Positions 10,068 to 61,564 of a stretch of DNA of 64,000 nucleotides are shown piece by piece (within the stretch, counting starts at the first letter, position 1; every line of letters starts with the position of its first letter). Source of the stretch: a virus (taxonomy: Duplodnaviria > Caudoviricetes). Both the position numbers and the translations under genes were made by a program. The notes under the pieces were generated by a model. That model searched no databases. It saw nothing but the letters and a program-made list of their open reading frames with translations, and was not told where the DNA came from. The DNA is taken from positions 75-64,074 of the IMG/VR virus record IMGVR_UViG_3300037225_000815. One strand, 5' to 3'.

Positions 10068-10093
10068 ATCTTATCTCCTTTATTATAGCCATT

Positions 10094-10115: not shown

Positions 10116-10144
10116 TTTGACCGTTATTGTTACTCGACTGACGA

Positions 10145-11455: not shown

Positions 11456-11482
11456 TGGTTTCCTCCTGGGGATTGGTTAGAC

Positions 11483-37117: not shown

Positions 37118-37174
37118 GTTTCCTCCTTGGCTCGATACCCATATGTTAGGTACTTTCAAGCCTTTCATCATCTG

Positions 37175-37261
37175 TGGGAAGTGATGGATTCGAACCACCG
37201 CGGCCGCTTTCGCGACGACGGGTTTACAGCCCGTTGGTTTCAACCGCTCACCCAACTGCCC
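37175..37261 (-). tRNA. tRNA-Tyr(GTA)
   Basis: GGGCAGT acceptor (one mismatch), ACGGG-CT-GTA-AA-CCCGT, long variable arm, GGTTCGAATCC; CCA not encoded. Confidence 0.9.
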
Positions 37262-37264
37262 ATT

Positions 37265-37337
37265 TGGAGCTGACAGGAATCGAACCTGCGACTTCCTGGT
37301 TGCAAACCAGGCGCTCTCCCAACTGAGCTACAACCCC
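37265..37337 (-). tRNA. tRNA-Ala(TGC)
   Basis: CCTGG-TT-TGC-AA-CCAGG; G3:U70 identity pair; GGTTCGATTCC. Confidence 0.95.
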
Positions 37338-37340
37338 ATT

Positions 37341-37414
37341 CGGACTGTACGGGACTCGAACCCGTGACCTCCGGATCGACAATCCGGCGCACTAGCCAAC
37401 TGTGCTAACAATCC
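37341..37414 (-). tRNA. tRNA-Asp(GTC)
   Basis: CCGGA-TT-GTC-GA-TCCGG; G discriminator; GGTTCGAGTCC. Confidence 0.93.
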
Positions 37415-37419
37415 CTTCT

Positions 37420-37493
37420 AGCGGCCTGTGGGATTTGAACCCACGTAAACCAGCTTGGAAGGCTGGCACATAACCGGGCTCTGTCAAAGCCGC
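37420..37493 (-). tRNA. tRNA-Gly(TCC)
   Basis: GCGGCTT/AGGCCGC acceptor, CCAGC-CT-TCC-AA-GCTGG, U discriminator; weak D arm. Confidence 0.88.
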
Positions 37494-37499
37494 ACATAT

Positions 37500-37586
37500 C
37501 GGAGAGTACAGGACTTGAACCTGTAAGGCGACTTAATGCGCCCACGGATTTAGCAAACCCGCTCCTTACCATTCGAACAACTCTCC
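37500..37586 (-). tRNA. tRNA-Ser(GCT)
   Basis: GGAGAGT/ACTCTCC acceptor, CGGGT-TT-GCT-AA-ATCCG, long variable arm, G discriminator. Confidence 0.88.
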
Positions 37587-37589
37587 ATT

Positions 37590-37675
37590 CGGAGAGAGTA
37601 GGATTTGAACCTACGCATCCCTTACGGGATGGCGGCTTAGCAAGCCGCTGGTTTAAGCCGCTCACCCAACTCTCT
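37590..37675 (-). tRNA. tRNA-Ser(GCT), second divergent copy
   Basis: GCGGC-TT-GCT-AA-GCCGC, long variable arm; acceptor has A1:C72 and U7:U66 mismatches. Confidence 0.8.
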
Positions 37676-38012
37676 ATGTTAACTGCTTCCTTTCAGGATC
37701 CGAGCTATGCGTAGCATCACGCTCCTTCCTGGCCGGTGGTTTGTTGCCGAACAAGATCTCGATGTCAAGGCGGTGTCCCCAGTCAGTCGTCAGGGTACCT
37801 CCAGCCAGGTTGGCCCGCATGGCCTTCACGATGTCCACAAGAAGGTCCCGGACCGATCCGGTGTTGTACTCGGTCGTTATGTTCAATGATACCTTGATTG
37901 GCTTGCCATATTCGGATGGCCCAATCATCAATTGGTCATATGGTAATGATTCAGGCGGTACGACGTCCACTTCCTTGTAGAATACTTTGTCTGTCGGCTT
38001 GATATCGTTCAT
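37674..38012 (-). CDS. Hypothetical protein
   Basis: Likely start MNDIKPTD after GGAG. Confidence 0.5.
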   Translation of the reverse strand: MNDIKPTDKVFYKEVDVVPPESLPYDQLMIGPSEYGKPIKVSLNITTEYNTGSVRDLLVDIVKAMRANLAGGTLTTDWGHRLDIEILFGNKPPARKERDATHSSDPERKQLT

Positions 38013-44279: not shown

Positions 44280-44816
44280 TAAGCATAGTTAACTATATAT
44301 GCAGATAGATTGGAACGCAGCCGATCCGGTAACTTCCGGCTCTTACGGGGACCTGAGAAGAGTCCTTACCTGTAGGGATAGTAGGCTCCGCCCGATTGGT
44401 TACTAGTGTCCATACGGTAGGCCCTATCCGAAGAGACGCAGGACCCTTTGAATATGTCATATTCGCCCAGGTGGCGACATATTCAAGGTCTGTCCACCCT
44501 TCCTAAAGTGGACTTATCTCATACACTTGCTTACTGGGATGACTTGCCCCAGTAAGACAACGTAGAAACAAAGCCCATCTGCAGACCGTCAGGTTGATGC
44601 AGACTCCCGGAAGATAATGACTCCGGGGTGGACTTGTTCATGTATGAGATTCTATTATGCCCTAGCGGGCATATTCTTTGCCTCAAGAGACGCAGGAACC
44701 CTCGGACTGTCATACCTGAGTGCGAGCCACACAGGACACAGTTAGGGCGTCGCTGTGCCCAGATGCGGACCTGCCTCGAAACAGCCTTTCCCTTGATTCA
44801 CCATAGGAGGTGCCTT

Positions 44817-44993: not shown

Positions 44994-45469
44994 CACCAAA
45001 CTGCGTTTAAGAGACGCAGTTTCCTTTGACTACATAGTCAGCCTAACCGCTGAACTCAATAACGTAGCTCACGTAGCCTGATTGAGGGCCAACATGATTG
45101 TCCCACAAAGGTTACACGCCCCAGAATGGGGCAGGTATACTACCTGCGTACTGATTCCTATAGGTACGCAGTTTCCTTTGAGCCTGCATAGAAATGCATA
45201 AGCCTCGAATGGATGGCTTGCCATCGGTAGAGGGGGTTCTATTCAATCCGCAGGAGAGAGCGGTGATGCCAAGTACCTTGGCTTAAACTGCGGGGAAAGG
45301 TGATGACACCCCGCATTATTATTGCATGGAGGACATCATGTTCGAACAATGCCTTATCCTCGTAGTGCTGTTATGCGCTTCAATACTGCTTAACATCATA
45401 CTGCTATCGAGGAAATGACTGCGTAAGGACTACGCAGTTCCTTTCAGAAATACCACAAGGAGGTATATC

Positions 45470-45928: not shown

Positions 45929-45992
45929 GCACAAGGACTGCGTTACCGGAAGGGACGCAGTTCGCTTTGAATAATACCATAGGAGGTATATC

Positions 45993-46202: not shown

Positions 46203-46245
46203 TTCCAAACTGCGTAGGGGAAGACCTTACGCAGTTCCATTCGAA

Positions 46246-46425: not shown

Positions 46426-46584
46426 GAGAACCAATAAGTGAAGAGTCTCCTACACCAGGATTCTAGACAACCTGGACAAACCCGTATAGGCCATGCGGAC
46501 TGGGAGACTCGCGTCCTACTATCCTCCTATACTGGGACTGTGCCAATTAGTATCGGCGCAGTTCCTTTTGACAAGGAGGACACC

Positions 46585-46758
46585 ATGAAGATACTGACAA
46601 TGGAAGAAATCAGTAAGATGCCCATCCCCACCAAGTTGCTCAACGACCTGAGGACTATGGCTATGGACACTGCCGTCAAGGTTCAAAGTCTGAGCCCCGA
46701 GGAGCAGAAGCGCCTCACTGAAGACGCCAAGAGAATCGTACAACAGTACCTGCGTTAG
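46585..46758 (+). CDS. Small protein
   Basis: Hairpin element plus AAGGAGG; its stop lies inside the next hairpin. Confidence 0.65.
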   Translation: MKILTMEEISKMPIPTKLLNDLRTMAMDTAVKVQSLSPEEQKRLTEDAKRIVQQYLR

Positions 46759-46807
46759 GGAAACCTGACGCAGTTCTCTCTGAATACCACACCCAAGGAG
46801 GGTAAAC

Positions 46808-47233
46808 ATGATTACTGTATTACTCATCATCAGTGTACTTGCAAACCTCGGACTGCTCGTCACCATCCTGAAACAGACCAAGTCCAGGAACGACGAACAG
46901 GAAACCCGTGACCTCAAAGCCCGAGAGGAAGCGGAGAAGAAACAGGAAGACTACATAGAAGGCCTGTTACAGAACATCCACGACCAGGACGTCCACATCG
47001 AAGTCCAAGCCAAGGAAATTGCCTCACTGAAAGAGACAATCAAGAGACTGGAAGACAGCATGACCAAGGGCGCCAAACTCGAGGAAGGCCTCAAGAGCGT
47101 CGGTGATGCGCTGTCACCCAATGGATTGGGCAAAGGCATCGGCATGCTAGTCCGCAACATCAAGGCCATAGGGCCCACCATCGGCAACGGGTTCAAGGAA
47201 GGCTACAACCAGGGCCTGCTCGAGAACAAGTAA
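46808..47233 (+). CDS. Membrane-anchored coiled-coil protein
   Basis: N-terminal TM segment, coiled coil, AAGGAGG SD. Confidence 0.7.
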   Translation: MITVLLIISVLANLGLLVTILKQTKSRNDEQETRDLKAREEAEKKQEDYIEGLLQNIHDQDVHIEVQAKEIASLKETIKRLEDSMTKGAKLEEGLKSVGDALSPNGLGKGIGMLVRNIKAIGPTIGNGFKEGYNQGLLENK

Positions 47234-47296
47234 TCAAGCACTGCGTTGGGTGAAAGCCTGACGCAGTCCCTTTCAGAATCTACCAGGAGGTATCAC

Positions 47297-47548
47297 ATGA
47301 ACATGAAACTCGAACGGAACCTCGCAGTCGCCGGAGCAACAACCGGAATCGCCGTCGCCAACGCACTCCGCAACACGGCTATCGGGGCCAAGAAAGTCGC
47401 TTCCTTCACCACGAAAGTGGCCAGGAATGCGTGGGCCTATGTGGTCGCCGGAGCCAAAACAGTCGGCAAGTCGACAGTCAATGCCTTCAAGGGTATCGGC
47501 GAAGTCGGCAAGCAGGAACTCGAGGTTGCCAAGGCCAAACAGCGGTAG
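47297..47548 (+). CDS. Ala/Lys-rich amphipathic protein
   Basis: Hairpin element plus AGGAGG. Confidence 0.65.
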   Translation: MNMKLERNLAVAGATTGIAVANALRNTAIGAKKVASFTTKVARNAWAYVVAGAKTVGKSTVNAFKGIGEVGKQELEVAKAKQR

Positions 47549-47602
47549 ACACAACACTGCGTAGGGTAACTCCTTACGCAGTCGCTTTCGAGGAGGTGCC
47601 TT

Positions 47603-47905
47603 ATGGCAATGACAATGATTATCACCATGTTCGGAATCATGCTGGCTACATCCATCTCATTGTATGAGGTGCTGAGATGTTCCCGGCCGTTCGGCTGGTT
47701 CATCAGGATTATCGACAAGAGTTTCCTGTTCCAGATGGCTTTCCACTTCGCAATCGCCTTCGTCATCAGGAGCATAAGCGGAGAAGGCATGACCGCAGGC
47801 GGTGCAAATCTCGCCTCGACGGCAGTGTTTCCCCTGTACTGCTTCATCAGGAACGCAATCAACGGGAACTACCGCATGCTGAACGGCGGATGGAGGACCA
47901 AATGA
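47603..47905 (+). CDS. Membrane protein
   Basis: About three hydrophobic segments; AGGAGG. Confidence 0.65.
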   Translation: MAMTMIITMFGIMLATSISLYEVLRCSRPFGWFIRIIDKSFLFQMAFHFAIAFVIRSISGEGMTAGGANLASTAVFPLYCFIRNAINGNYRMLNGGWRTK

Positions 47906-48039
47906 TAGCAATCGTGCTCACCACATTATGGGTCCTCTTCATCCTGGCCGTGTTCCATGTCACGTGGCCATGGTACATCATCACCCTGGTCGTAGCGGGA
48001 GCGTTGCTCTGCATCTACATCTTCGACGACAGCTTCTAA
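47902..48039 (+). CDS. Small 2-TM protein
   Basis: ATGA overlap with the upstream gene; GGAGG. Confidence 0.55.
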   Translation: MIAIVLTTLWVLFILAVFHVTWPWYIITLVVAGALLCIYIFDDSF

Positions 48040-48140
48040 GCAAGGAGGCCCAATGCACTTCATACTAGGGCTCATCATCGGTATCATAGTCTACAGATGG
48101 CTATTCTGTAGCAACAACACCAAGACCAAGGAGGTCAAGC

Positions 48141-48674
48141 ATGACGACACAGAACACAAGGACTGACCCTCAAGTCAGCCAGCACGCTCTGGACGCCGTC
48201 CGCATCGCCAAGGAGAAGCACGACAAGGCTGTCCTGCTCAACAAGGCGAAAGTGGAGGAGTCCAGGCTCAAGAGGCGTGAGGCGGGACGCAAGTTCGCCC
48301 AGCGCATCAAGAACGGGGTCGAGAAGACCGTCTCGTGGTATGAGCATGAGTTCACGAACATATGCTATGACGGCATGGTATATGGCGGTGCGTCAGCCCT
48401 CATAGGCGCCACCATAGGCATGCTCATGTCCAACCCGGCAATCATCTCGATGGCTGTCACGTTCGGTGGAATCACCGCCATCATCCCGATAGTCGTCGCC
48501 CTGGCCTACTGGGCTGTCAAAGGCCTGGTAGAACTCGGCAAAGCGACTGTCAGGGCCATCAAGAAAGTCCACAAGGACGCTCCGGTCATCAAGGAAGCCA
48601 TGAAAGAAGGCTCCAAAGTGCCGGCCAATCAGGACCCTCCACCCCCAATGGCTGGGGCAGAAGCCACCGCATAG
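48141..48674 (+). CDS. Membrane protein with two central TMs
   Basis: AAGGAGG SD. Confidence 0.7.
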   Translation: MTTQNTRTDPQVSQHALDAVRIAKEKHDKAVLLNKAKVEESRLKRREAGRKFAQRIKNGVEKTVSWYEHEFTNICYDGMVYGGASALIGATIGMLMSNPAIISMAVTFGGITAIIPIVVALAYWAVKGLVELGKATVRAIKKVHKDAPVIKEAMKEGSKVPANQDPPPPMAGAEATA

Positions 48675-48714
48675 CCATCAAGACTGCATTCCCGAAAGGG
48701 GTGCAGTCCCTTTT

Positions 48715-48852
48715 GTGCTCAAGCGAGGGGGCAGGGGCCCCCGAGCATATCATAATGCTGGGCAGGGACCCAGCGTAATAATAGATGAATCCTTACGCAG
48801 TAAAGGATGAATGGGCTTGGGCGGAGCCCAAATAGCGGGCAGGGACCCGCCA
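48715..48852 (+). ncRNA. Candidate multi-hairpin sRNA with CAGGG(A/G) loops
   Basis: Begins at the purine of a hairpin element; four short GC stems, three with CAGGGR loops. Confidence 0.45.
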
Positions 48853-49246
48853 AAGTGAAACGTGTTTCCAGATAACGGCGAATTCACGTCAAGTTTGGGG
48901 AATATCGAACGGAAAGTGAGTCATTTCTCCAGGTTTGCACGGTTTCGCACGGAATCCCGTGATAAACACGTAATAACCCCCGTAATTTGCTCTGTTTGAG
49001 CGAATAACCTGGGGTAAACAGGTGTTTGAAAGGGCATAGGTCCTGTCCCGTGAGTAGGATCCTGATGGGTGTACCCTATAAGTATCCTGACCGGGAGGGA
49101 TGATGCCCGCCGATTGAGGGATGCCCGGAATGGCCCGCATATATGCGGGAATAAAGGGTGTAGGCTATTCATGTTTATCGGCATGCGACACGCATGCGAT
49201 TAAGGGATTGCGTACTTGTATGGACATCGCTATGAAAGGAGAACGT

Positions 49247-49507
49247 ATGAAGTTCAAAGTTGGCTGGTGGTACCGGCTCGTCGACACAATGCAATCGTTC
49301 AATGGCGACATAATGAACGACTACCAATGGCATAAGTGCGTTGAATCCGTTCCGGACGGCGAATGGACCGCCGTGAAGATGGAATCCGAATCCGGTACTC
49401 CGACAACAAGGCAATACGCATACGACGAAGCGCAGTACAACCCCGGAACACGGGATAAGAACACAGTTTCGTCGCCGGCACCGGAACTGAACGTCAGGGA
49501 AGCATAA
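49247..49507 (+). CDS. Hypothetical protein
   Basis: AAGGAG SD; start MKFKVGW. Confidence 0.55.
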   Translation: MKFKVGWWYRLVDTMQSFNGDIMNDYQWHKCVESVPDGEWTAVKMESESGTPTTRQYAYDEAQYNPGTRDKNTVSSPAPELNVREA

Positions 49508-49552
49508 CCTAACGCAGGGAATCGTCGAAATCTAAACACAAGGAGGCTCGCC

Positions 49553-49903
49553 ATGGCGAGACGAATACGTGAACGTAACAGCCAGTTCAACAAGCGGTTG
49601 GCCGGCGCATTCAACAGGTTCATCGCCCACCAGGCGGACAACCTGGGGAAAGTCGTCTATGACAACCACGAGATGGTCATAGCCATGGGGCTGTCGAACA
49701 TCATAGTGGGAATCGCAGTGTGCGTCCTGACCGGTGAGGTGACGATACTCTATGTCATCGCATCGATAGTGGCGAACACCCTACTGGACATCGGCGTCTC
49801 GTTCCTGTCGTCGCTCATCATGAGGGCGATAAGCGAGAGGCTCGGCAAGGAGGTGAAGCATGGACCGCAAGTCGACATTCAGCTCATACCTCAGTCGATA
49901 TGA
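49553..49903 (+). CDS. Membrane protein
   Basis: AAGGAGG SD; two TMs. Confidence 0.6.
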   Translation: MARRIRERNSQFNKRLAGAFNRFIAHQADNLGKVVYDNHEMVIAMGLSNIIVGIAVCVLTGEVTILYVIASIVANTLLDIGVSFLSSLIMRAISERLGKEVKHGPQVDIQLIPQSI

Positions 49904-50132
49904 CCTGCACTCGATGCAGGTCAGCGACGAGGGCAACACAATCTACGAGTTCGTCCTGAGGACGGACCGCAGGCGGTCCGTGTTCATCGAGGAAACGAAG
50001 TCCCTGATACGGGTATTGGACCCGCAGGTCAGTGACGACGTCGAAACAGTCAACGGATATGAGGACTCTATCCGTTACTTTGCGACGGTAGAACTGAAGA
50101 CGGGAAGCAGATGCCTGCGACAAACCTCGTAG
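49860..50132 (+). CDS. Hypothetical protein
   Basis: AAGGAGG SD. Confidence 0.55.
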   Translation: MDRKSTFSSYLSRYDLHSMQVSDEGNTIYEFVLRTDRRRSVFIEETKSLIRVLDPQVSDDVETVNGYEDSIRYFATVELKTGSRCLRQTS

Positions 50133-50758
50133 GCTTCGGCGACTACCGTGGCAGTCAATGGCGGGATGTACCCACGTCATACCTGATGTGGATACTCTCG
50201 CCCGAGTTCCATGACCACCACGACGCAAAGGTCAATGCCCGCATCGAACTGGCCCGTCGCACGGGGTTCGTACAGAACCACGGAAGCCCGAACAGCCAGC
50301 CAATCTATACCGCACAGGTTAGGGAGGCCGGCGACACATGGGAACCGGAGAGGAAGGAACCAGACATACTCACGGAGCGTGAGGTGTTCCTGATATGCAA
50401 ACTTGCATCGGAACGTTACATCACAAACTCCAATATGCATACATTCCCATCCGGAATGTCAGTACTAGACTGTCGCAGGAAATCGCTTAATGACACTTGC
50501 CATGAATGCTTCACATGGCCAGACGCAGAATCCATTGAAAGGATGATGTCGATAATGCGAGAGCTCAGCGACGACCTAGAAGCGAGAGCCCAAGTTGCAT
50601 CACCCCTCAGGTCACGTCGCAGACGGAACAACCGAGGAACGGAAGAGCTTGCCCAGGACATACTACGGGGCATGGGCGTAGACATATCTGAAGAGAACGA
50701 AGGCCAACCGGAAGAGACGCCAAACGACCCTTTCGGTGACCCAACCATCCCATTCTGA
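50111..50758 (+). CDS. DUF3820-like N-terminal domain protein with SSB-like acidic C-tail
   Basis: FGDYRG...DVPTSYLMWI; ends DPFGDPTIPF. Confidence 0.6.
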   Translation: MPATNLVGFGDYRGSQWRDVPTSYLMWILSPEFHDHHDAKVNARIELARRTGFVQNHGSPNSQPIYTAQVREAGDTWEPERKEPDILTEREVFLICKLASERYITNSNMHTFPSGMSVLDCRRKSLNDTCHECFTWPDAESIERMMSIMRELSDDLEARAQVASPLRSRRRRNNRGTEELAQDILRGMGVDISEENEGQPEETPNDPFGDPTIPF

Positions 50759-50768
50759 AGGAGGACAC

Positions 50769-50990
50769 ATGCTGTCAGACGTCGAAAGAGTAGCCATCGC
50801 AGTCAGGCGCATGGACGCTCTCATGCCTTCCTACTATAGGAAGGAAGCCAAATTCATCGAACTCCTGGAACAGGTATGCGGTTCAGACCGCTTTCTGCGA
50901 CAAGAAGTCGGCAGACACTATGGGGCACAGCCCAAAAGGAAGAGACTAGTCGAAGAGCACCTGACCTTCTTCGACTTAAACCCCCGATAG
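50769..50990 (+). CDS. Hypothetical protein
   Basis: AAGGAGG SD; start MLSDVER. Confidence 0.55.
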   Translation: MLSDVERVAIAVRRMDALMPSYYRKEAKFIELLEQVCGSDRFLRQEVGRHYGAQPKRKRLVEEHLTFFDLNPR

Positions 50991-51349
50991 GGTACGCCTA
51001 CGGCGGAAATGTATTGCACACGGGTTAAGGTGTGCGCCATTGTCCGCTTTCATAGGGTTGAGAACCCGCCCGGGACGGAAGAGCCGGCAATTCGACTCTG
51101 TCGTCCAGGGGCGAGACCCGTTTGTCGCAGGGCTCACGAGTGCAACGCAGTCATACCCAAGACCTTCAGTGAAACCAAGAGGCTACGCATGCTTGCTCAC
51201 TTGCATGCGCCTCGCAATCCGTCTGGGGCGCCCAGCCGGATTCCCTCCGGTTGCTCGACGCCTGCTGGCGTTCGCATCGCAGGCTACGCAAACATGGACT
51301 GCGCCGACCTGACGCAGTCCCTTTCAGATACCATACAAGGAGAATCATC

Positions 51350-51751
51350 ATGAAGAAGACATCATTGCTCATCGGAATCGTGGCAATCATCGCATGCATA
51401 TCTGCCTGCTCGAAGATGAATCCTATGGCGCCCAAGCTGGAATCGGCCCCGGCGACCAACTTCATCGTACCGTGGACGACAATGAATACTACCTACACAG
51501 TATCCAACTTCGTTACAAGACTGACCAATACGTCAGGTAATCTTACAACGTTGGATGTGAGAGTTATATTCGGATTCGCCGACGGAACAGAAGCTCAAGC
51601 GACGACAACCACGCCTGACCAATACGGTGTAATGATATCGTATGGAATGATAGGCTTATCATTCTACACGGACAACAACCGGAACGTGTACCAGAACTAC
51701 TTCCAGAGTGGTGGAGCAACTCCCACCTACTACAGGTACTCAATCAGGTAA
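51350..51751 (+). CDS. Lipoprotein
   Basis: MKK, hydrophobic stretch, then ISA-C lipobox; hairpin element upstream. Confidence 0.7.
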   Translation: MKKTSLLIGIVAIIACISACSKMNPMAPKLESAPATNFIVPWTTMNTTYTVSNFVTRLTNTSGNLTTLDVRVIFGFADGTEAQATTTTPDQYGVMISYGMIGLSFYTDNNRNVYQNYFQSGGATPTYYRYSIR

Positions 51752-52037
51752 CCACGAGACTGCGCCAGGAAGTTCCTGACGCAGTTGCTTTCGATTGTCA
51801 CAGATGGCAGGTGGGATTAGAAGCGTCCAGCCTTTAATGAGTGCGGGCAGACCCCGGCCAGCAAGTGGATATGGGCGGTAACAGTCCATGTCAAGTACTG
51901 CACGAAACCCAACGTGGTACGACTCCTAAGAGGGAGAGGATAAAGCGACCCGCTTCGGCGTAACAGCAAACCATTCATGGCAGTCATGCGGACTTGCTCC
52001 AAGCGATTGGCGCAGTCCCTTTTGAAAGGAGGCGCAG

Positions 52038-52241
52038 ATGCTTACACGATACAAGTCCATCAACCTGATGAAGGCGCAGGAAGTCCGGGCCAAAGCGCTG
52101 GCCAAACTCCTGGGCGCAGAAGTCAACAAGCGGATTGACGTCATCCTGTGGAATCCCCATCACCTGAAGAGCGCTTCGATGATGAAGGACATCACCAGGG
52201 TGGAGCTCATCAAATGCATCCAGAAGGAACTGGCGAAGTAA
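52038..52241 (+). CDS. Small protein
   Basis: Hairpin element plus AAGGAGG. Confidence 0.65.
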   Translation: MLTRYKSINLMKAQEVRAKALAKLLGAEVNKRIDVILWNPHHLKSASMMKDITRVELIKCIQKELAK

Positions 52242-52387
52242 ACCGACAAGGAGGATACATGATTGTACTACTGGCAGTAGCCGGAGTTATCATCTGGCTC
52301 GCACTGGAATGATTCAGTCATAGCGCACCCTCCTAAACTGCGTCGGGCACCATGCCTGACGCAGTCTTATCCGGACAAGGAGGCATC

Positions 52388-52558
52388 ATGAACCAAGGCG
52401 AATTGATAGAATCTCACAGGCAGGAAATCGAGACCGAGATTGCCTGGATGGAAACCACGCTCAAGCAGGCTCTATACCTGAAAGAGGAACTGGCCAAGTC
52501 AAGGGCACGTGTGGAATACCTCGAGGTCTCCATAATGGAACTTGTGTCAAAGACCTGA
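52388..52558 (+). CDS. Small coiled-coil protein
   Basis: Hairpin element plus AAGGAGG. Confidence 0.6.
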   Translation: MNQGELIESHRQEIETEIAWMETTLKQALYLKEELAKSRARVEYLEVSIMELVSKT

Positions 52559-52585
52559 CGCAGTTCCTTTTGCAAGGAGGACACC

Positions 52586-52864
52586 ATGATTACCACGAAA
52601 CTGGTGAATGACATTCATGCAGAAGGCTCGGCCATCAACCTGTTCAACCTGGGCTTCCTATACAAAGGGAGCACATGGGAGATATTCTGCATGTTCGAGA
52701 TGGCCAATTTGTTCCAACACAAGAACATCAGTGAACGCACACAGTGGCTCGTAACCGAAGACCAGAAAGTCTACCTGTCGCAGGACAGCGGGAACGGATA
52801 CCACTCGGAATGGGCGTACTTTGATGTCGAACACGAGACAGTGTTCATTACTGCGCCTGCATGA
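52586..52864 (+). CDS. Small protein
   Basis: Hairpin element plus AAGGAGG. Confidence 0.65.
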   Translation: MITTKLVNDIHAEGSAINLFNLGFLYKGSTWEIFCMFEMANLFQHKNISERTQWLVTEDQKVYLSQDSGNGYHSEWAYFDVEHETVFITAPA

Positions 52865-52909
52865 CGCAGTTCCTTTCGATTAATCCTATACCACAAGGAG
52901 GTAGAGCAA

Positions 52910-53320
52910 ATGGTTAATCAAATCGTCATACCGACGACATCGGAAGCGGTGTCGCTGAGATTCCGGCCGTACCATACGGCCAAGTCCGAGAAACTTCTGG
53001 GATACCTGGAAGTGACTGTGAAGAGCATGATGGGAAGCGTCCTGACTTCGTTCCCCGTCTTCACGTGGCAGGACCCCAAGTCCCAGGCCAAGCGCTACGG
53101 CGTCATCGGCAAGCTCGACTACAAGGTCGGGACGAAGGAACACTCCCACGGCTTCCTGTCACGGGACCTGAAAGCCTACATCAACCGGATACTCGAGGAG
53201 AACTCCTCGATGCTGACCGGTGAGTCCTCCGAGTTCGTCGAGACACATGAGGAGCATGTGCCCGCCCAGCAGGCGAGCGCAGAGTCAACCCCCGACGGAG
53301 AGTCGGAAAGAACCGCCTAA
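52910..53320 (+). CDS. Beta-rich protein with acidic tail (SpoVG/PC4-like guess)
   Basis: SLRFRPY...LLGYLEVTV; hairpin element plus AAGGAGG. Confidence 0.6.
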   Translation: MVNQIVIPTTSEAVSLRFRPYHTAKSEKLLGYLEVTVKSMMGSVLTSFPVFTWQDPKSQAKRYGVIGKLDYKVGTKEHSHGFLSRDLKAYINRILEENSSMLTGESSEFVETHEEHVPAQQASAESTPDGESERTA

Positions 53321-53394
53321 CCAACGACTGCGCCAGGAAGACCTGACGCAGTCTCCTTCGGAGAAATCGTTGATGCTTTAACACAGGAGGCACC

Positions 53395-53670
53395 ATGAAG
53401 TTCGACAAGGAGCTCATACTCAAGGTCAAAGCCGTGGTCTCTATGGAAATCAGGATACTGGATGTCGAAGGCGGAACGATGCTTGAGCAGAACCCCAACA
53501 AGGCCGGCTCGGTATATGCCGACATCTACAGGAACCATAGGGCATGGTTCATGTGCTGGTTCAAGCCGGACAACGGCGACCCATGGAGGCTGTTCACGCT
53601 CTCGCCCACCGGTGAGTTCGAGGAAATCGGTGGCGACAAGATATCCCGTCTCAAGGCAATCATGGGATGA
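53395..53670 (+). CDS. Small protein
   Basis: Hairpin element plus AGGAGG. Confidence 0.65.
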   Translation: MKFDKELILKVKAVVSMEIRILDVEGGTMLEQNPNKAGSVYADIYRNHRAWFMCWFKPDNGDPWRLFTLSPTGEFEEIGGDKISRLKAIMG

Positions 53671-54173
53671 TTCCCTCCCTATCTGCGCCAGGACACAAGG
53701 ATGTGCCTGACGCAGTCCCTTTTGGGACTGCGTATCCGTCAGACAGGGCCGTGATAGCATGTGTGGCGACATGCGTGTAATGATGAGTCTCTCTGTGCTA
53801 TAAACGTGCCGAGGCAGGCCAATAAGCCCTCGGTGGCTTGGACGCAGTTCCTTTTGCATCGTAGGAGAGGCCTACCTGTTGAATATGGTGAAAGTCCATA
53901 GCAGCCTGGGATACTCTCCCAGTGAACAAAAACGCTCCTGCGTCCTGAAGTGGGGGATACCCGCGACTGGACGCAGTTGTTTTCGGATAACCCACTAGGG
54001 CAGACCGAACTTATGTTCCCCTCCAAAGGACATAAGGGACTCTCGCCAATACGGAGTCGTCCGGGAAGAACCGAAACGCCCGGACCTGAAATATCCATCG
54101 GAAGTAGGACATGTACGGGGTAGTACTGGACGTCCCAGCTGCCCCGTCACTTTTACCTTAAGGAGGTAAACCG

Positions 54174-54482
54174 ATGCTAATAGAACCATCAAAAGGAACC
54201 GGTCGAGCAAGATGCAGATTGTGCCGCAAACTCATCAAAGAAGGTGCCCAACAGATACGTATAAAGATGGCATACGCCCAGGAATGCGCACACAGAAAGT
54301 GCATGACCAAGACAAGACGATTCGTATGCCAGGAGTGTAGTTTGAGGAATAGAACAACTCCATGTTTATTGGTTCTTAAAGGATGTGAACCTGATTCACT
54401 TGGGCCGAAACTTTGTCCCATTGATTCTGCGGGTTGGCCTCCCAAATGGGTCGAGATCAAGCTCAAACGGAGGAAATCATGA
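54174..54482 (+). CDS. PARP-type zinc-finger-like protein
   Basis: IEPSKGTGRARCRLCRKLIKEG...HRKC matches the zf-PARP pattern. Confidence 0.6.
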   Translation: MLIEPSKGTGRARCRLCRKLIKEGAQQIRIKMAYAQECAHRKCMTKTRRFVCQECSLRNRTTPCLLVLKGCEPDSLGPKLCPIDSAGWPPKWVEIKLKRRKS

Positions 54483-54871
54483 CCTATCCTGACCATATTA
54501 CAAAAGGATGGCTACGCGAACACCCGGACTGCATATTCGTATTCGGCGACAACATGGCCAGATTCGGACATGGCGGAGCGGCAGCCTTAAGGGACTTGCC
54601 AAACACCTACGGATTCATCACCCAGAAGTATCCGGACTCAAGGCCCGAATCCCATTATAAGCCAGAAGAATATACGCATATCCTGAACACGGAAACCGAA
54701 TTCCTCCGAGAACGCATTCTGTGTAATCCCGATCTTACCTTTATGATTACGAAGCTTGGCGGCGGACTCGCCAACATGTTCAATATCCGCCCGGCAATCA
54801 TCGAGAAGCTCAAGGAGTTCGAGGACACAGCCAAATACCCGAACGTGGTATTCATAGGGGGTAACACATGA
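54479..54871 (+). CDS. Macrodomain-like phage protein
   Basis: IFVFGDN..RFGHGGAA.LR..PN.YGFIT.K and KLGGGLA motifs. Confidence 0.6.
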   Translation: MTYPDHITKGWLREHPDCIFVFGDNMARFGHGGAAALRDLPNTYGFITQKYPDSRPESHYKPEEYTHILNTETEFLRERILCNPDLTFMITKLGGGLANMFNIRPAIIEKLKEFEDTAKYPNVVFIGGNT

Positions 54872-55113
54872 TTATCGGCGGACAGGAATTCCCCGACGTA
54901 TGCGTACCGGAATGCCGGTTGGGCAAGGAATACAGGGGACAGGGCGACCTATGCGACAGATGCCCGATCTTCTGCTGCACCCTGTACCAGGACGAACCCG
55001 GTGAGCCTCCCCACAGGATCCTGGAACCCGACGACTACCGTCCAGACTGGGCGAAAGCCTGGAAGGAATGGTTCGACGGAGGAATGGCAGGATATCCCAA
55101 GATAAGCCTATGA
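54868..55113 (+). CDS. Cys-rich small protein
   Basis: C...C, CDRCPIFCC. Confidence 0.55.
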   Translation: MIIGGQEFPDVCVPECRLGKEYRGQGDLCDRCPIFCCTLYQDEPGEPPHRILEPDDYRPDWAKAWKEWFDGGMAGYPKISL

Positions 55114-55126
55114 CAAGGAGAAGCCA

Positions 55127-55630
55127 GTGTCAAACGAGAATCTGAACATATGTTCCAAGTGCGGCGGAGAATGCTGCAAACTCTTCCCCGGGTTCTACTA
55201 CCCCGATGACTTCAGGAAGCGGAACGGAAGCCTAGACTGGGAAAGGATACTCAACCTCCTTACCTCGGGCCTGGCACAGATTGACAGGTGGGAAGATACC
55301 GAACCAGTCTACTTCCTGAGGCCAAAGATGGTAATGAAGAATGACAGCCATAACGGCATATTCTCATACCCATGGGGCGGGGACCCGGGCATCCATCTGA
55401 CGGAATACGGATGCTCGCTCAAGTACAAACAGCGCCCGTCGCAGTGCCGGCTCCTGGACCCGGTGAAGTGTGAGAAAGGCGACCAGCAGGACTCGGATCT
55501 CGGAAGGGAATCCGCAATGCGCGAATGGAAGAGGCTATCGAATAAGCTACAAGACATCGGCAAGGAAGCCGGAAGGAGAAGAGATGTCACAACAAAGGGA
55601 CATAGCGGTCCTCAAGAAGTTGCTTTATGA
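55127..55630 (+). CDS. YkgJ-like CxxCxxCC metal-cluster protein
   Basis: CSKCGGECCK...GCSL...RPSQCR. Confidence 0.7.
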   Translation: MSNENLNICSKCGGECCKLFPGFYYPDDFRKRNGSLDWERILNLLTSGLAQIDRWEDTEPVYFLRPKMVMKNDSHNGIFSYPWGGDPGIHLTEYGCSLKYKQRPSQCRLLDPVKCEKGDQQDSDLGRESAMREWKRLSNKLQDIGKEAGRRRDVTTKGHSGPQEVAL

Positions 55631-55781
55631 CCGCCGACAGGCTATCATCAACGACAGAACAGTGATATCCAGCGTCGAGGCGGACGACGTTATCGACGCC
55701 CTGACAAGCGCAATATCAAGCATACGGCGAAACACTCGCATTACGTGTCCGGAATGCGACGCCGAAATCGACCTGGACTAA
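55584..55781 (+). CDS. Small protein
   Basis: Start MSQQRD; CPEC near the C-terminus. Confidence 0.5.
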   Translation: MSQQRDIAVLKKLLYDRRQAIINDRTVISSVEADDVIDALTSAISSIRRNTRITCPECDAEIDLD

Positions 55782-55792
55782 AGGAGAACAAC

Positions 55793-56314
55793 ATGGCGAA
55801 ACTCAAATTCGAACACGATGTCAGATGCACGGCATGTGGAGGAACTGGACTATACCGCGGAATGGCGGAACGCGACGGAGCGACGGTCGTCTGCTACAGA
55901 TGCGAAGGAACGGGTAAGGAGCATATCGTACATGAGTACGAACCGTTCAATGGCAGGAAACTCGACCCGACCATCAAGCGCGTCTACCAGACTGCCGGAG
56001 GATATTGTATCACCGACAAAGACGTCACGCATGCTGGGCAGGTAATCCACTTCTCGAAGGCCGGAATCTCCTACCAAGAATGGATGGACGGCGGTAAACC
56101 ACTGCCCATAAGGGAACTCCATTGCCCAGTCATACACTTCGGACAGGGAACACCAATCGGAGAATGGTTCAAGCACCACCATGACCACGAGACATTCAAG
56201 TCAGACCTACATGAATGTGAAATGTGCTTCAGCCCATGCTCAGAGAAGCATCGGGAACAGTACTGGGCGTTCTACGACCAGCATGAAGCCAAATTCCTGA
56301 AACTGAAGGAGTGA
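55793..56314 (+). CDS. DnaJ-type Zn-finger protein
   Basis: CTACGGTG...CYRCEGTG; AAGGAG SD. Confidence 0.7.
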   Translation: MAKLKFEHDVRCTACGGTGLYRGMAERDGATVVCYRCEGTGKEHIVHEYEPFNGRKLDPTIKRVYQTAGGYCITDKDVTHAGQVIHFSKAGISYQEWMDGGKPLPIRELHCPVIHFGQGTPIGEWFKHHHDHETFKSDLHECEMCFSPCSEKHREQYWAFYDQHEAKFLKLKE

Positions 56315-56592
56315 ACATGCCAGAATACCTCGGAGACCGAACAATAGCCGAGAAAGAGCATGAAGACTCAATCCAGGAACAGGGGTTCATGGACGAGTTC
56401 GAATGCATTCATGGTGTACCAATCGAAGAGGACTGCCCGGAATGCTTCCTCGACAACTTCGGGGACATGGCCGGGAACAATCACGTCCTCAAGGAGATGA
56501 TATCCGATATCGAGATCCCTAGTCCCGATACAAATCCCAAGAGTAAGGAGGGGCAATGCGGAGATGCATCTCCAAGCAGGCGAGACGGATAA
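56311..56592 (+). CDS. Acidic hypothetical protein
   Basis: CIHG....CPEC. Confidence 0.5.
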   Translation: MNMPEYLGDRTIAEKEHEDSIQEQGFMDEFECIHGVPIEEDCPECFLDNFGDMAGNNHVLKEMISDIEIPSPDTNPKSKEGQCGDASPSRRDG

Positions 56593-56683
56593 TCGCCAGA
56601 ATTCTCAGCTAGGTCATTGGCTGCGCCGGGGTAACCTGACGCAGTCATCCTTGGCAGGTTGGTTCCCCAAGGAGCAACCACAC

Positions 56684-57166
56684 ATGAACGATACCATCAA
56701 GATTCGCAAGGAGAGCTATGAGGAGCTCAAGCGGTCCGACGTGAGCAAGCACATCTCCATTGGCTTCAGGTCATACGAAGATGACATGAAGTTCGGCTAT
56801 GCCACCGTGACCATCACCACCCCCATCGGCTCGGTCAAACTCAGACTCACCGTCTGGAAGAACAAGCAGGACGCCAGCAAACCGCGCCTGGGCTGGTACC
56901 AGACCTTCGACGGCTACACGACTTCGGTCGTGAAACCCAAGGAAGGCGCTGACCCCGCCAAGAACAAGTTCCGTCTCCCGACGGAATCAGCCGTGGATTC
57001 CAGCATCCACGACATCATCGACGCGATGATTATCGACGCTATCGCCGGGACCAAGAAGAAGAAGGCCCCGCCGAAGAAGACACCGAAATCGGAGGAGCAG
57101 TCTGGAAAGCCCGCTCCGGCGAAATCGGAAACCGAACAACTCGAGACCGACGCCCGTACGGCGTAA
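56684..57166 (+). CDS. Beta-rich protein, paralogue of 52910
   Basis: SIGFRSY...FGYATVTI; hairpin element plus AAGGAG. Confidence 0.6.
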   Translation: MNDTIKIRKESYEELKRSDVSKHISIGFRSYEDDMKFGYATVTITTPIGSVKLRLTVWKNKQDASKPRLGWYQTFDGYTTSVVKPKEGADPAKNKFRLPTESAVDSSIHDIIDAMIIDAIAGTKKKKAPPKKTPKSEEQSGKPAPAKSETEQLETDARTA

Positions 57167-57529
57167 GAGAACAGAGGAACTAAGACCTGCCAGGACTGTG
57201 TACGCAAGTGCGCAGTTCCTTTTGGATAATGTACGGCTGTTTAGCCCACACTAAACAGAAATTCATATTCATTGGTATGCACAGGAGGCATGAATGAAAG
57301 TGTTGAAGAGCTACTTAATAACCGACCTATCGTTCGAGGACAAGGAAAGGATATTCCAGGAGGCCAAGGCCGCCGGACACCAAGTGTATGTGACAACAAG
57401 GGACGCCACGCAATACATGGAAATAAGGGAGGGAACCAATGTCACTGGAAGCGACAAGAAAGCTGATACTTGACATCTGGAAGAAGGCACGACTGGACAT
57501 AGCAGCAAGACGCAAGAAGGAGAGGGCAC

Positions 57530-58075: not shown

Positions 58076-61000
58076 ATGCACGTCCAAGTTGACGGAACGG
58101 TTATCAACATATCCCGGATGAAGCTCTCGGACAGGACGCTCGTAACTGTCGAGAGTACCGGGAACATATCGAGGAAGTTCGAACTTCCAATAATCGAGTA
58201 TCCCCTGATGGTGTCCAGGAATACGGTGGAATTCGCGCCAATTCACATGGACCCGTCGGAGCTCATCGTCATCAACAACCACATCACTGTCGACAAGAAC
58301 GGGATTATCAGGCTCAACGACGGCTCTTTCGAGAGCGCAAGCATCAAGAATGACGAGAAGGCCAAGAGGCTTCTGAAGAGGACGCTGATAGACCATCCGA
58401 TATGGGTGGACCAGTTCAGGGCACTGACTGGGAAAGCGACCGACAAGCACATCCTCTCCCTGGCTGCCGTAAGGCAGATATTCAGGAAGAGGTCGAGAAT
58501 ACCCAGGATCCAGAACGTATTCCAGGGGGAACTGAGGGTATGGCGCATCGTCGACAGGGAAGAGCTCATCTACCAGACCATCGTCAAGAAGGTCTACCAG
58601 ATGGTGTTCGAGAACCTGACTGAAAGCAGGGCGAAGTACGCCATCAGGAAGCTGAACATCTCCAAACAGGAGGCCATCTTCAACCTCATCCAGGCCAAGA
58701 CTGCGTCCCAGAAGGTCGAGATACCGTGGTCATCGCAGATGATACCGCTCCTCGAAGAGGCCTCCGGACTGGTCCCGAACGACACTCTACAGAGCGAGAA
58801 AGCCGGACTGGTAGTCGCGAAAGGAACGGTCGAGAAGAACGGAAGACGGTACTCATACGCCCAGAGCGTAAACCCATGGTTTGAGCACTGCTCCACCAAT
58901 AGGCAGGTGGTCGCCAAGTATGTCACCCAGATATGCATGCTGACCAACCACAAATGGAAGGAGATGCCCAAGCTGCTGGCCGCCCGGATGGCCTACATGG
59001 GATTCACTCCAGAGGACGGCTGCGTCATATCAGCATCGGCAGCGGAGAAGTTCAGGTGTATGCAGGTCGACATCGACCACATCATCGTGAAGAATCCCAA
59101 ACTGGAAGTGAGTTCCTGCGGGAACTTCGACCCGTACGACTACTCGGGTATCATGAGGACAAACGCCCCGTTCATCAACAGGGGAGTCCTGGGTACCTAT
59201 AACGACAGGAAGAAGGAGCTGAGGAGCAAGTACCATGGGATCATCACCAAGCTCGAAGTAGTACCTACCGAGGTGGACGACGAGTTCATGGTAGCGGTCG
59301 AGACCACATCGGTCATGAAGCTCGAGAAGGGCGACAAGCTGGCAGACCTCCATGGCAACAAGGTCACTATCGCAGAGATAATGGAACCGGGCGAGATGCC
59401 CCGTACCATCGATGGCTGGCCGGTCGACATCATAATCCCTCCGTACCTGGGCAAGCGGGCGTCAGCCAGTAGGCTGAAGGAAGAGGAAGACTCGCTACCG
59501 GGAAGGAACATACTGACCCTGGTCGACCCGGTCAACGACACATGCTACCCGAACATCAACGTCGGCAAGGTAGCTTACATCCGAATCTCCCAGCATGCCA
59601 GGAAGAAGCTCAACTACTCCAACAAGACCAAGACCAACTACATCGGCATCACTCCGAGGGGCTACGGCCTCTACACGTATGCCGACGCGATGTACCATAT
59701 GGAAGCCGTCGGAGCGGAAGGGCTCATCAGGGAGATCCTCAACCAGACGTTCAGCACCAACTCCCCTGAGCTCCTGAACGAACACCTCAAATGCATGGGA
59801 TTCGAGCTCGTAAAGGGCAGGATTACCGGCACCACGAAGACCCCGTTCTTCGAGGCCCCTGACAACGACATCGTCATCAACAAGGTGGTTGACCCGCGGA
59901 AGCTTCCGGAGGACCTGACAGGGACAGTTGTGGACCCCAGATTGCTCCATAACCACAGTTGGCTCCGCATTCCCCAGGGTATCGAGCTGACTTTCCACGC
60001 GCTCACCAGCGCCCTCAGGGCCCGTTCATACGACCACGAATACGTCGAGCACGTCCTTACGGAGGACTACTCGTGGATGTCCAAGTACGGGATAGGCTTC
60101 AAGCACCTGATGTCGGACGGCAAGAAGCAGATGTTCCTAAGGATACCGCCCGGCCTGCGGACTTGGCGGACACCGACCGACCTGACTACGCTGTCCGATA
60201 TCCAGCAGCAGCTGAACCAGATTCTGGTGCAGTTCCGCGGCTACGAATCGCATGCGGGCTCTCCCGCGGTATTCGGATTCATGCGGCGTATCAACCAGAT
60301 GATGAACAAGCTCATCGACAGCGTCTGCTCCAGGATATTCACCAAGAGCGGACTGCTGAGGAACACCATCCATCCAAGGGTCAAGTACGCGATGAACGCA
60401 GTGCTTGGGAGCAATCCCAGGCTGGAACTTGACATGTGCGAAATCCCATACGAAGCCGTCTACAGCTATCTGGAAGACGAGGATTGGAAGCGAGCATACA
60501 ACCTCCAGGACATCGAGGACCCGAGCATCGGCGAGATCAACCTGGCGTTCGAGAAGATGGACGCAAGGTGCCTGGTCAAGAGGAATCCGGTCCATCAGAT
60601 AAGGAACATCCTGGGACTACGGGTCAGAGTCCATAACGGACAGACCATCAACATCAACCCGGCGATCGTGAAGATGCTGGACGGCGACTTCGACGGCGAT
60701 ACGGGGATAGCCCTGATGCCGGTTACGAAGGAAGCCCAGGAAGACATCAAGAGGTTCGGCATCGAGAAGCATCTCAGCCACCTGATTACCAACAAGGACC
60801 TGGAAGGATTCACCGTCAAGGACACAATCCGGGAGAACGACCTGTCCATACAGAGGTGGTACTTCCACAACTCCGGGATATCCGAGGACAAGAAGGACAT
60901 CCGGAAGAGGTATGGCGAGAAGAAGGCTACGATGTTCCTCAAACTGTACAACGCCGACCTGACACAGAAGGAGCTGTTCGAGATGCAGGTGGACTCCGCA

Positions 61001-61564
61001 GTGGAGTTCAGCTACATGAAGAGTGCGACAGCGAACGCCGGCAACATCGGCAACCTCCTGAGGAACCTCATGTTCAGGCCGTACGGACGGCTGGGAATCA
61101 AGATAGCCAGCCATGTCTACCACGTACTGGCGCAGGCCGGACTGGACTGCAAGAACTCGATGACAGACAGGAAGGACCTGGAGAAGGCGTTCCGGGCGTT
61201 CAGGGATTTCAAGATGGACCATACGACGTTCGCATCAAGCCTCTCGGGCTTCTTCAAGCCGAGCATCATAGAGGCAGTCTGGAAGACGCTGACGAAGAAC
61301 GGCAGATGGGTCGGCAACATCACAAGAGTAATAGCCGAACGCATGCCGGTAGCCCACATCGTCAACTCCGGGAAGATTCAGGACCTCTACCTTGCCGCGC
61401 TGAACACTGAGCGTAACGTGTCCGAAGGCAGTTTCGTCGAGAAGCTGCTGACGTACATCGAACCGCGCCAGGACTTCATCATCAAGAAGGGCGTCGAAGA
61501 GGAAGAGGATACTATCGTCCTGTCATCCGAGATAGAGGTGACGGAAGAGGATCTGGAAGAGTAA
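58076..61564 (+). CDS. Compact fused beta-beta' DNA-directed RNA polymerase
   Basis: Beta motifs GFTPEDGCVISAS and GDKLADLHGNKVTI...MP..IDGWPVDIIIPP. Beta' motifs KSGLLRNTIHPRV, LVKRNPVH and INPAIVKMLDGDFDGD (DFDGD at 60686-60700). Confidence 0.88.
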   Translation: MHVQVDGTVINISRMKLSDRTLVTVESTGNISRKFELPIIEYPLMVSRNTVEFAPIHMDPSELIVINNHITVDKNGIIRLNDGSFESASIKNDEKAKRLLKRTLIDHPIWVDQFRALTGKATDKHILSLAAVRQIFRKRSRIPRIQNVFQGELRVWRIVDREELIYQTIVKKVYQMVFENLTESRAKYAIRKLNISKQEAIFNLIQAKTASQKVEIPWSSQMIPLLEEASGLVPNDTLQSEKAGLVVAKGTVEKNGRRYSYAQSVNPWFEHCSTNRQVVAKYVTQICMLTNHKWKEMPKLLAARMAYMGFTPEDGCVISASAAEKFRCMQVDIDHIIVKNPKLEVSSCGNFDPYDYSGIMRTNAPFINRGVLGTYNDRKKELRSKYHGIITKLEVVPTEVDDEFMVAVETTSVMKLEKGDKLADLHGNKVTIAEIMEPGEMPRTIDGWPVDIIIPPYLGKRASASRLKEEEDSLPGRNILTLVDPVNDTCYPNINVGKVAYIRISQHARKKLNYSNKTKTNYIGITPRGYGLYTYADAMYHMEAVGAEGLIREILNQTFSTNSPELLNEHLKCMGFELVKGRITGTTKTPFFEAPDNDIVINKVVDPRKLPEDLTGTVVDPRLLHNHSWLRIPQGIELTFHALTSALRARSYDHEYVEHVLTEDYSWMSKYGIGFKHLMSDGKKQMFLRIPPGLRTWRTPTDLTTLSDIQQQLNQILVQFRGYESHAGSPAVFGFMRRINQMMNKLIDSVCSRIFTKSGLLRNTIHPRVKYAMNAVLGSNPRLELDMCEIPYEAVYSYLEDEDWKRAYNLQDIEDPSIGEINLAFEKMDARCLVKRNPVHQIRNILGLRVRVHNGQTININPAIVKMLDGDFDGDTGIALMPVTKEAQEDIKRFGIEKHLSHLITNKDLEGFTVKDTIRENDLSIQRWYFHNSGISEDKKDIRKRYGEKKATMFLKLYNADLTQKELFEMQVDSAVEFSYMKSATANAGNIGNLLRNLMFRPYGRLGIKIASHVYHVLAQAGLDCKNSMTDRKDLEKAFRAFRDFKMDHTTFASSLSGFFKPSIIEAVWKTLTKNGRWVGNITRVIAERMPVAHIVNSGKIQDLYLAALNTERNVSEGSFVEKLLTYIEPRQDFIIKKGVEEEEDTIVLSSEIEVTEEDLEE

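Follow-up and report, generated by a model that had tools for sequence, protein, structure and literature searches.

Co-oriented RNA hairpins, candidate terminators or 3'-end structures, in the early gene block of an uncultured large myophage

Intergenic hairpins sharing one stem and one pyrimidine-rich tail mark the small-gene (early) block of an uncultured large myophage, represented by the IMG/VR record IMGVR_UViG_3300037225_000815. The stretch analyzed, hereafter the window, spans positions 75 to 64,074 of the record (64,000 nucleotides, nt) and is nearly the whole of its 64,074 bases; CheckV estimates the completeness of the record at 27%. All copies of the element reside on the + strand, in intergenic position, and are confined to 44.4–57.2 kb. 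We lean somewhat towards viewing them as a phage-specific family of putative intrinsic-terminator-type or 3'-end RNA hairpins, spread by duplication. The hairpin element is a new sequence family; the kind of element is already known from other phages.

Copies were collected by reading every ACGCAG site, and by folding each of them. The 10-mer CCTGACGCAG is the commonest in the whole window, as GACGCAGT is the commonest 8-mer. At ≤1 mismatch CCTGACGCAG has 26 matches, against 4.96 ± 2.02 in shuffled sequences (26 matches are reached in 0/100 shuffles); 22 of the 26 lie within 45.4–56.7 kb, and six matches on the minus strand correspond to 5' arms. The family includes 19 clean hairpins and about five diverged or split copies (44399, 44675, 51990, 52536, 53724/53848). 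The array starts at ~44.4 kb, and not at 46.5 kb as assumed in an earlier, sequence-only reading of the same DNA. Bare hexamer matches at 44315, 48795, 49512, 50523 and 51145, lacking tail or stem, were excluded from all counts.

Elements fit the consensus (GG)ACTGCGY-nRGG-loop-CCTK-RCGCAGT(CC), followed by YCCYTTYGRA, which may also be written ACTGCGYnnGG..CCTGACGCAGTYCCYTTYGRA. Stems measure 9–13 bp, loops 3–24 nt. The tail features 1–5 T and 5–7 pyrimidines in the 8 nt after the stem (24 copies), and position +8 after the stem is occupied by G in 21 copies and by A in the other three; the conserved block, up to the +8 purine, is ~19 nt long. Variants cluster by position: CTGCGT types at 45.0–47.6 kb, CTGCGC types at 51.3–56.6 kb, AAGAGACGCAG types at 44.4–45.0 kb. 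A covariance model of the 19 clean copies found no further copy at E ≤ 1 outside 44.9–57.3 kb on either strand of the window, and recovered three diverged copies (E = 0.002, 0.07 and 0.95). No variants were found inside any hairpin in contigs of four DNA runs. An exact-motif scan of viral contigs returned four singletons only, apparently by chance. Rfam gave no match at E ≤ 1 in the 44–58 kb region, and tRNAs only in the window at large.

The structure is selected, and forms on the + strand. This had been proposed from the letters of the window, and holds by fold z-scores, by pairing relative to shuffles, by strand stability, by the GNRA loops and by covariation. All 11 short hairpins analyzed have z-scores of -4.1 to -7.2, and 0/200 shuffles fold as well. 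In a MAFFT alignment of the eight pairs of the lower stem, 93.4% of the cells are paired, against 88.0 ± 1.3 in shuffled alignments (0/500 as high) and 16–38% in slid controls. Double changes within the phage involve three of the eight pairs (7 cells), three other pairs being invariant, and the covariation score is 0.227 against 0.118 ± 0.021. The compensatory change CTGCA/TGCAG noticed earlier at 48682 is present, and replaces G-C by A-T at pair 6. The G-T pairs at 46537, 46750, 47240 and 57193 are also as described, as are the GAAA, GTAA and GCAA loops at 46750, 47240, 48682, 56619 and 57193, to which a GGAA loop at 45950 must be added.

Loops and strand stability were also considered in the only close relative, a 66.7-kb contig binned into a metagenome-assembled genome, identified by an RNA polymerase (879 amino acids) 59% identical to that of the window phage. 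Counting both phages, 10 of 16 tetraloops are of the GNRA type (chance expectation about 1 in 32). RNA of the + strand is more stable than its complement in 15 of 21 copies in the window (p = 0.07), and in 8 of 13 in the relative (p = 0.046). The six copies more stable on the minus strand are precisely those in which a C opposite A had been noticed (51297, 51758, 52850, 53326, 53683, 56619). GNRA loops and G-U pairs favor folding on the + strand, and compensatory changes, together with the GNRA loops, denote selection on the fold itself. The loop of about 110 nt attributed to 53726–53847 survives only in part. Arms at 53724–53733 and 53839–53848 can pair across 108 nt, but shuffled sequences fold as well as this 125-nt stretch (z = -0.8), and within the family every 5' arm can pair with every 3' arm. 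At 53706–53733 a 3' arm and the 5' arm of the following copy can form a perfect hairpin, closed by a TTTT loop, in place of the two regular ones.

The polymerase of the window phage is a 1162-amino-acid protein (58076–61564, +), matching Rpb2 domain 6 at residues 374–456 and Rpb1 domain 2 at residues 832–892, and is, on these matches, a fused two-barrel RNA polymerase. Both double-psi barrels reside in one chain, and similarity to cellular beta/beta' is seen at the motif level only. In the relative the polymerase is split into two open reading frames (ORFs) ~370 nt apart (10001–12637; about 13013–13900), just past the DFDGD motif; the gap could reflect an intron or an intervening element, or the gene could be truly split. 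Only two relatives of the polymerase were detected in the viral and metagenome collections scanned, the second being a 1208-amino-acid protein, 31% identical, encoded by a 234-kb phage, complete and bearing terminal repeats. When viral and metagenome collections were scanned with single proteins and alignments for further relatives, only 234-kb and 120-kb contigs carrying the 31%-identical polymerase emerged, and DNA and protein searches of a phage collection gave no match to the window phage.

The first 9 kb of the relative are a small-gene block syntenic with that of the window. Nine orthologous pairs (26–54% identity) were recognized; gene content differs strongly, and one orthologue is transposed. 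This region hosts 12 hairpins followed by 4–7 T within 8 nt; only two more are found in the other 58 kb, and a tail with 4–7 T is featured by 14 of 14 such hairpins. The stems of the 12 are diverse: six are homologous to the window family, and half have unrelated 3' arms. The six-member family reads ACGGAGCCAGG...CCTGGCTCCGT + CTTTTTCAAAT, and is homologous to ACTGCGTCAGG...CCTGACGCAGT + TCCTTTCGAAT in the window. Comparison of ACTGCGTCAGG/CCTGACGCAGT with ACGGAGCCAGG/CCTGGCTCCGT reveals three double changes, 8 of 11 stem positions being identical; three stem positions thus covary between the two phages. The covariance model has one match in the relative (E = 5e-4). On these features the relative's hairpins are textbook intrinsic terminators, and the window copies their presumable G+C-richer cousins. 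Among the six clearest orthologous pairs the element is found in both phages for three, in one phage for the other three. The +8 purine, conserved in the window phage, is not conserved in the relative. Another frequent 10-mer of the relative, ATACTGTTCA, apparently lies within coding sequence (context judged by eye), and was not taken as a signal. The 234-kb phage has no copy of the family (best covariance-model E = 0.21), and neither a direct-repeat search in the 10 kb upstream of its polymerase nor whole-genome hairpin scans detected a repeated hairpin family or a dense array.

In the window, the 5' arm begins ≤11 nt past the upstream stop codon, or overlaps it, in 13 of 23 copies, and the distance from stem base to the next ATG is 21–43 nt in 13 copies. 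The elements have two traits of intrinsic terminators: a stable G+C-rich stem-loop on the sense strand, co-oriented with a gene and located downstream of it. Upon transcription of the + strand, the 9–13-bp G+C-rich stem would form just past the end of the small coding sequence that precedes it, and stem and pyrimidine tail (UYCCYUUY) would stop or attenuate transcription. At minimum, a nuclease-resistant hairpin would be left on the 3' end of each early message. Near-identical stems would be paralogues, originated by local duplication and recombination in a fast-changing block of small orphan genes; the non-orthologous positions of the elements and the clustering of variants by neighborhood fit local duplication and turnover. 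We infer that RNA ends at the hairpins, and likewise which polymerase responds to them.

The sequence-only reading had taken conservation across copies as evidence against a terminator. This view is not supported: in the relative, homologous hairpins combine unrelated stems with canonical T tracts, and mapped terminators are conserved in three phages with their own polymerases. In phiKZ, 61 mapped terminator sites share a hairpin and a TTAT-containing tail (PMC10914365); in 201phi2-1, motif A is found at 59 mapped terminator sites (PMC11512511); in P23-45, a 26-nt motif is common to seven termination sites at the early end (PMC10770324). Conservation across copies hence does not exclude a terminator. 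The phages phiKZ and 201phi2-1 resemble the window phage in having their own multisubunit-type polymerase, dozens of co-oriented hairpins sharing a stem, and a conserved tail of ~10 nt rather than a long U tract (PMC10914365, PMC11512511). In contrast, their sites are genome-wide and mapped by RNA 3' ends (PMC10914365, PMC11512511), while the elements described here are confined to one 13-kb block and are predicted from sequence; the phiKZ motif, given as BCCYCCCCHWWDGGGRRGGBYTTATKYYGT, is unrelated to the present consensus (PMC10914365). In P23-45, too, a terminator motif is conserved and limited to the early end, the polymerases are of the two-barrel type and late genes are left to the host enzyme; its 26-nt motif is likened to the present one by description only (PMC10770324).

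Late genes of the window phage are preceded by strict sigma-70-type promoters on the minus strand, at 40258, 34373, 16506 and 14822 (TTGACT/G, 17–18 nt, TATATT/TATAAT/TACAAT; for example, TTGACT-N17-TATATT at 34373). Generic hairpins are also found at the ends of late genes, and their short tails are of the CC-TTTC or CC-TTTT type. Strict sites of this type (TTGAC-N16-18-TAnnWT) are absent from the + strand of the window. The relative has similar sites outside its early block. The presence of such promoters before late genes, and their absence from the early block, suggest that the host polymerase reads late genes.

Several observations weigh against a family of terminators. The U tract is poor (1–5 T in 8 nt), and a simple terminator scan flags four family copies only. 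About 22 terminators would lie in series, and in the tightest copies the 21–23 nt from stem to ATG are too few to host a promoter of their own; expression of the genes downstream would hence depend on read-through, on antitermination or on a promoter within the element itself. No strict sigma-70-type promoter was found in the + strand early block of either phage. Position relative to stop and start codons does not separate terminator from promoter, since five or six copies are near a stop and far from a start, and two to four the reverse. Finally, 3' arm and tail are conserved beyond pairing needs, and one orthologous copy in the relative keeps both without a 5' arm.

The conservation of the 3' arm had been claimed before, and is borne out on a smaller scale. 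Deviations from the consensus are 22 in the 3' arm and 42 in the 5' arm (binomial p = 0.017), a modest difference among copies that are not independent. Corresponding figures are 4 and 16 in the family of the relative (counted by eye), and 20 and 34 in 15 copies picked out by a sequence-blind hairpin scan. Since copies are paralogous, and both sets were first collected via the 3' arm, the asymmetry, though real, is modest and owes something to ascertainment. Two copies, at 44437 and 44691, had been described as devoid of a hairpin. The former has a diverged 5' arm (GGTTACTAGTGTC, 24-nt loop), whereas the latter indeed has a weak stem only, and the argument shrinks to one weak copy in the window and one in the relative. 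In the latter phage, AACCTGGCGCAGTCATTTTCAGA is found at 8366–8376 without a 5' arm, 45 nt past a separate hairpin; it precedes the orthologue (38.5% identity over 161 amino acids) of the gene located behind the window copy AACCTGACGCAGTCATCCTTGG at 56645. A second role for 3' arm and tail, read as sequence (phage-polymerase promoter or processing site), is conceivable, though we tend to doubt it.

As a promoter, the element would be a composite one. The RNA hairpin would end the upstream transcript, and 3' arm and tail together (CCTGACGCAGTYCCYTTY followed by a purine) would serve as double-stranded DNA promoter of a phage-encoded polymerase, with start at the conserved +8 G/A. Any promoter for genes whose ATG lies 21–43 nt from the stem would overlap the element. 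The ~19-nt conserved block extends to the +8 purine, and the 3' arm is conserved above the 5' arm in both phages, remaining consensus even in the six copies that tolerate a C-A mismatch. The arm-only copy before an orthologous gene, the lack of sigma-70-type promoters in a + strand block coexisting with a late block that has them, and the fact that the phage encodes its own polymerase point the same way. Arguments to the contrary come largely from the relative: half of its hairpins have unrelated 3' arms, which leaves no place in them for a common promoter, the +8 purine is not maintained, and elements are not kept at orthologous positions. The arm asymmetry, modest and partly due to ascertainment, adds little. 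The Y-G step conserved at +7/+8 would match, in addition, the consensus pause signal of multisubunit polymerases. On balance we consider the stop-and-restart arrangement unlikely. It has a parallel in P23-45, in which a strongly conserved promoter motif found upstream of 14 mapped start sites is assigned to the virion polymerase transcribing pre-early genes (PMC10770324).

The data exclude a promoter of host type within the hairpin, as only 1 of 24 copies has TAnnnT 16–18 nt from a CTGACG-like hexamer. An ATACCAY box was also discarded as part of the element. Its spacing from the hairpin varies (10–18 nt), and it belongs to a general CCATAGGAGG ribosome-site context, found also at element-free genes. 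An extended ribosome-site context, (C)CATAGGAGG or ACCACAAGGAGG, marks many genes (40786, 41365, 41598, 44804 and others), with or without a hairpin.

Alternatively, transcripts may be long and read through the hairpins, and the stem base and tail be recognized by a host or phage endoribonuclease, or by an RNA-binding protein. A cut in the single-stranded pyrimidine/AU tail would leave each upstream piece with a protective hairpin. Structure on the + strand, conservation of stem base and tail, and the density of one element per gene, awkward for strong terminators, would be accounted for; in some copies the tail can also pair with the next Shine-Dalgarno (46562, 52016, 52564; read from the letters). 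Yet a Pfam search of 20 early ORFs returned DUF7831 and two sub-threshold hits only, with no nuclease or RNA-binding domain, and copies in the relative resemble plain terminators. In RNase III substrates such as the T7 early sites, double-stranded RNA extends over about two helical turns and is interrupted by an internal loop. Stems of 9–13 bp are shorter, and do not match a site of the T7 early type. Processing of this sort is, in our opinion, quite improbable.

The hairpins may also be recombination substrates, or repeats inherited with duplicated cassettes, having little regulatory role. Such borders are known in T4-type phages, where PeSL cassettes, repeated units made by stem-loop and promoter, are found between orphan early genes, and PeSL-mediated shuffling is documented (PMC2839356, PMC4122927). 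The two systems are alike in several respects. In both, the stem-loop comes right after the stop codon and is followed by a ribosome-binding site, the early region is hyperplastic and made of small orphan genes, neighboring copies are most alike, and gene content turns over (PMC2839356, PMC4122927). PeSLs differ because a consensus sigma-70 promoter follows the stem-loop (PMC2839356, PMC4122927), whereas here TAnnnT at promoter spacing is found in 1 of 24 copies, and the 21–43 nt to the ATG are too short a space for such a promoter. Recombination would fit the clustering of variants (CTGCGT, CTGCGC and AAGAGACGCAG types), the transposed orthologue, and the strong divergence of the two phages in the genes and elements that they carry. 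Compensatory changes and GNRA loops denote, however, selection on the fold, and strict single orientation and tail conservation argue for a function; a mere recombinational role is accordingly very unlikely. The elements are not integron attC sites, which are marked by an integron integrase nearby and by RYYYAAC/GTTRRRY core sites. Arms in the window are CTGCGY/RCGCAG, and no recombinase domain was found among the proteins scanned by Pfam and PHROGs.

Least credible of all is a DNA hairpin promoter of the N4 type, extruded on the template strand and read by an injected polymerase. N4 promoter hairpins have stems in the range of 5–7 bp, and a 3-nt loop. A 7-bp stem and a GC-rich heptamer centered at -11 are described (PMC4496689). 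The window elements are similar in that some stem positions are conserved and others vary, and in that a short T-rich spacer and then a purine come after the hairpin, approximately the non-template view of an N4 early promoter with its start site (PMC4496689). The six copies with a C opposite A, moreover, pair better on the minus strand. The window elements diverge from N4, known for three promoters, a small template-strand hairpin and a T7-like enzyme (PMC4496689), in number (~24 copies), in the longer stems (9–13 bp against 5–7 bp), in the variable loops (3–24 nt) and in the preference for the + strand, the minus strand being less stable in 15 of 21 copies. No T7-like polymerase domain was identified in the large proteins scanned (8 against Pfam, 10 against PHROGs) of a record 27% complete. 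The terminator or 3'-end reading is retained as the preferred one, and the copies to which it applies are listed in Table 1.

Table 1. Hairpin copies in the window. E, covariance-model value.
Feature	Position	Strand	Remarks
Diverged copy	44399..44452	+	5' arm GGTTACTAGTGTC, 24-nt loop, 3' arm GACGCAGGACC, tail CTTTGA
Weak copy	44675..44706	+	AAGAGACGCAGG and tail; only an interrupted stem with preceding T-rich tail
Copy with short stem, AAG loop, tail	44998..45030	+	
Hairpin and tail	45143..45182	+	
Hairpin and tail	45417..45448	+	5' arm overlapped by stop codon of 26-amino-acid ORF
Hairpin, GGAA loop, tail	45935..45971	+	
Hairpin and tail	46208..46245	+	
Variant GGGACTGTGCC...GGCGCAGTTCC and tail	46534..46572	+	
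Hairpin, GAAA loop, tail	46749..46784	+	Upstream TAG stop within 5' arm
Hairpin, GAAA loop, tail	47240..47277	+	
Hairpin and tail	47556..47592	+	
Variant, compensatory CTGCA/TGCAG, GAAA loop, tail	48682..48717	+	
Hairpin, C opposite A, tail	51296..51328	+	
Hairpin, C opposite A, tail	51758..51795	+	
Diverged GGACTTGCTCCAA...TTGGCGCAGTCC and tail	51990..52026	+	E = 0.95
Hairpin, 13-bp stem, tail	52337..52375	+	
Shifted 5' arm GGAACTTGTGTCA, consensus 3' arm, tail	52536..52574	+	E = 0.002; upstream TGA stop within 3' arm
Short copy, C opposite A, tail	52850..52880	+	Upstream stop within hairpin
Hairpin, C opposite A, tail	53326..53362	+	
Bulged upper stem, C opposite A, tail	53682..53726	+	3' arm can alternatively pair with next 5' arm (53710–53733)
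5' arm, and 3' arm with tail, 108 nt apart	53724..53858	+	E = 0.07; long-range pair or two orphan arms
Hairpin, structured loop of 23 nt, tail	53937..53987	+	
Hairpin, GTAA loop, C opposite A, tail	56618..56655	+	Position orthologous to arm-only copy of the relative
Variant GGACTGTGTAC-GCAA-GTGCGCAGTTC and tail	57193..57226	+	Final copy of the array

Genes in the window are organized in two blocks. Those on the minus strand, at 1–40 kb, include terminase, portal, major head protein and tail sheath; a run of + strand genes extends from 40.5 kb to the window end. Six tRNA genes (Tyr, Ala, Asp, Gly, Ser, Ser) are clustered at 37174–37676 on the minus strand. DUF7831 is the sole family match among early proteins (54479–54871, +, E = 1.4e-17). 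A 26-amino-acid hydrophobic ORF with a strong ribosome site (45338–45418, +) terminates inside a hairpin copy. Long stretches without a convincing ORF, bounded by the elements, are found at 44280–44816, 45023–45337, 48709–49120, 51787–52037 and 53717–54173, and could encode small RNAs, although none has an Rfam match at E ≤ 1. A second family of small hairpins, with a covarying stem and a conserved loop (NNGGGCAGGGACCCNN), resides in non-coding stretches of both phages, at 48729, 48760 and 48837 (+) in the window, and at 4139, 4316 and 4406 in the relative.

If the hairpins are terminators, an uncultured lineage of peat phages, for which only two relatives were detected, would join the phages that encode a polymerase and rely on stop signals conserved in sequence, and about 24 natural variants would be at hand for probing the termination needs of such a polymerase. 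If the promoter reading were true, stop and restart would take place separately at every small early gene, the stem and the specificity of the promoter would have changed together at three positions between the two phages, and the element would represent a first promoter class for a deeply divergent fused polymerase, overlapping an RNA hairpin. With its 3' arm conserved in slight but recurrent excess, and with an arm-only orthologue, the element is a cheap test case of whether a terminator and a promoter for a fused two-barrel polymerase may share one 30-nt element.

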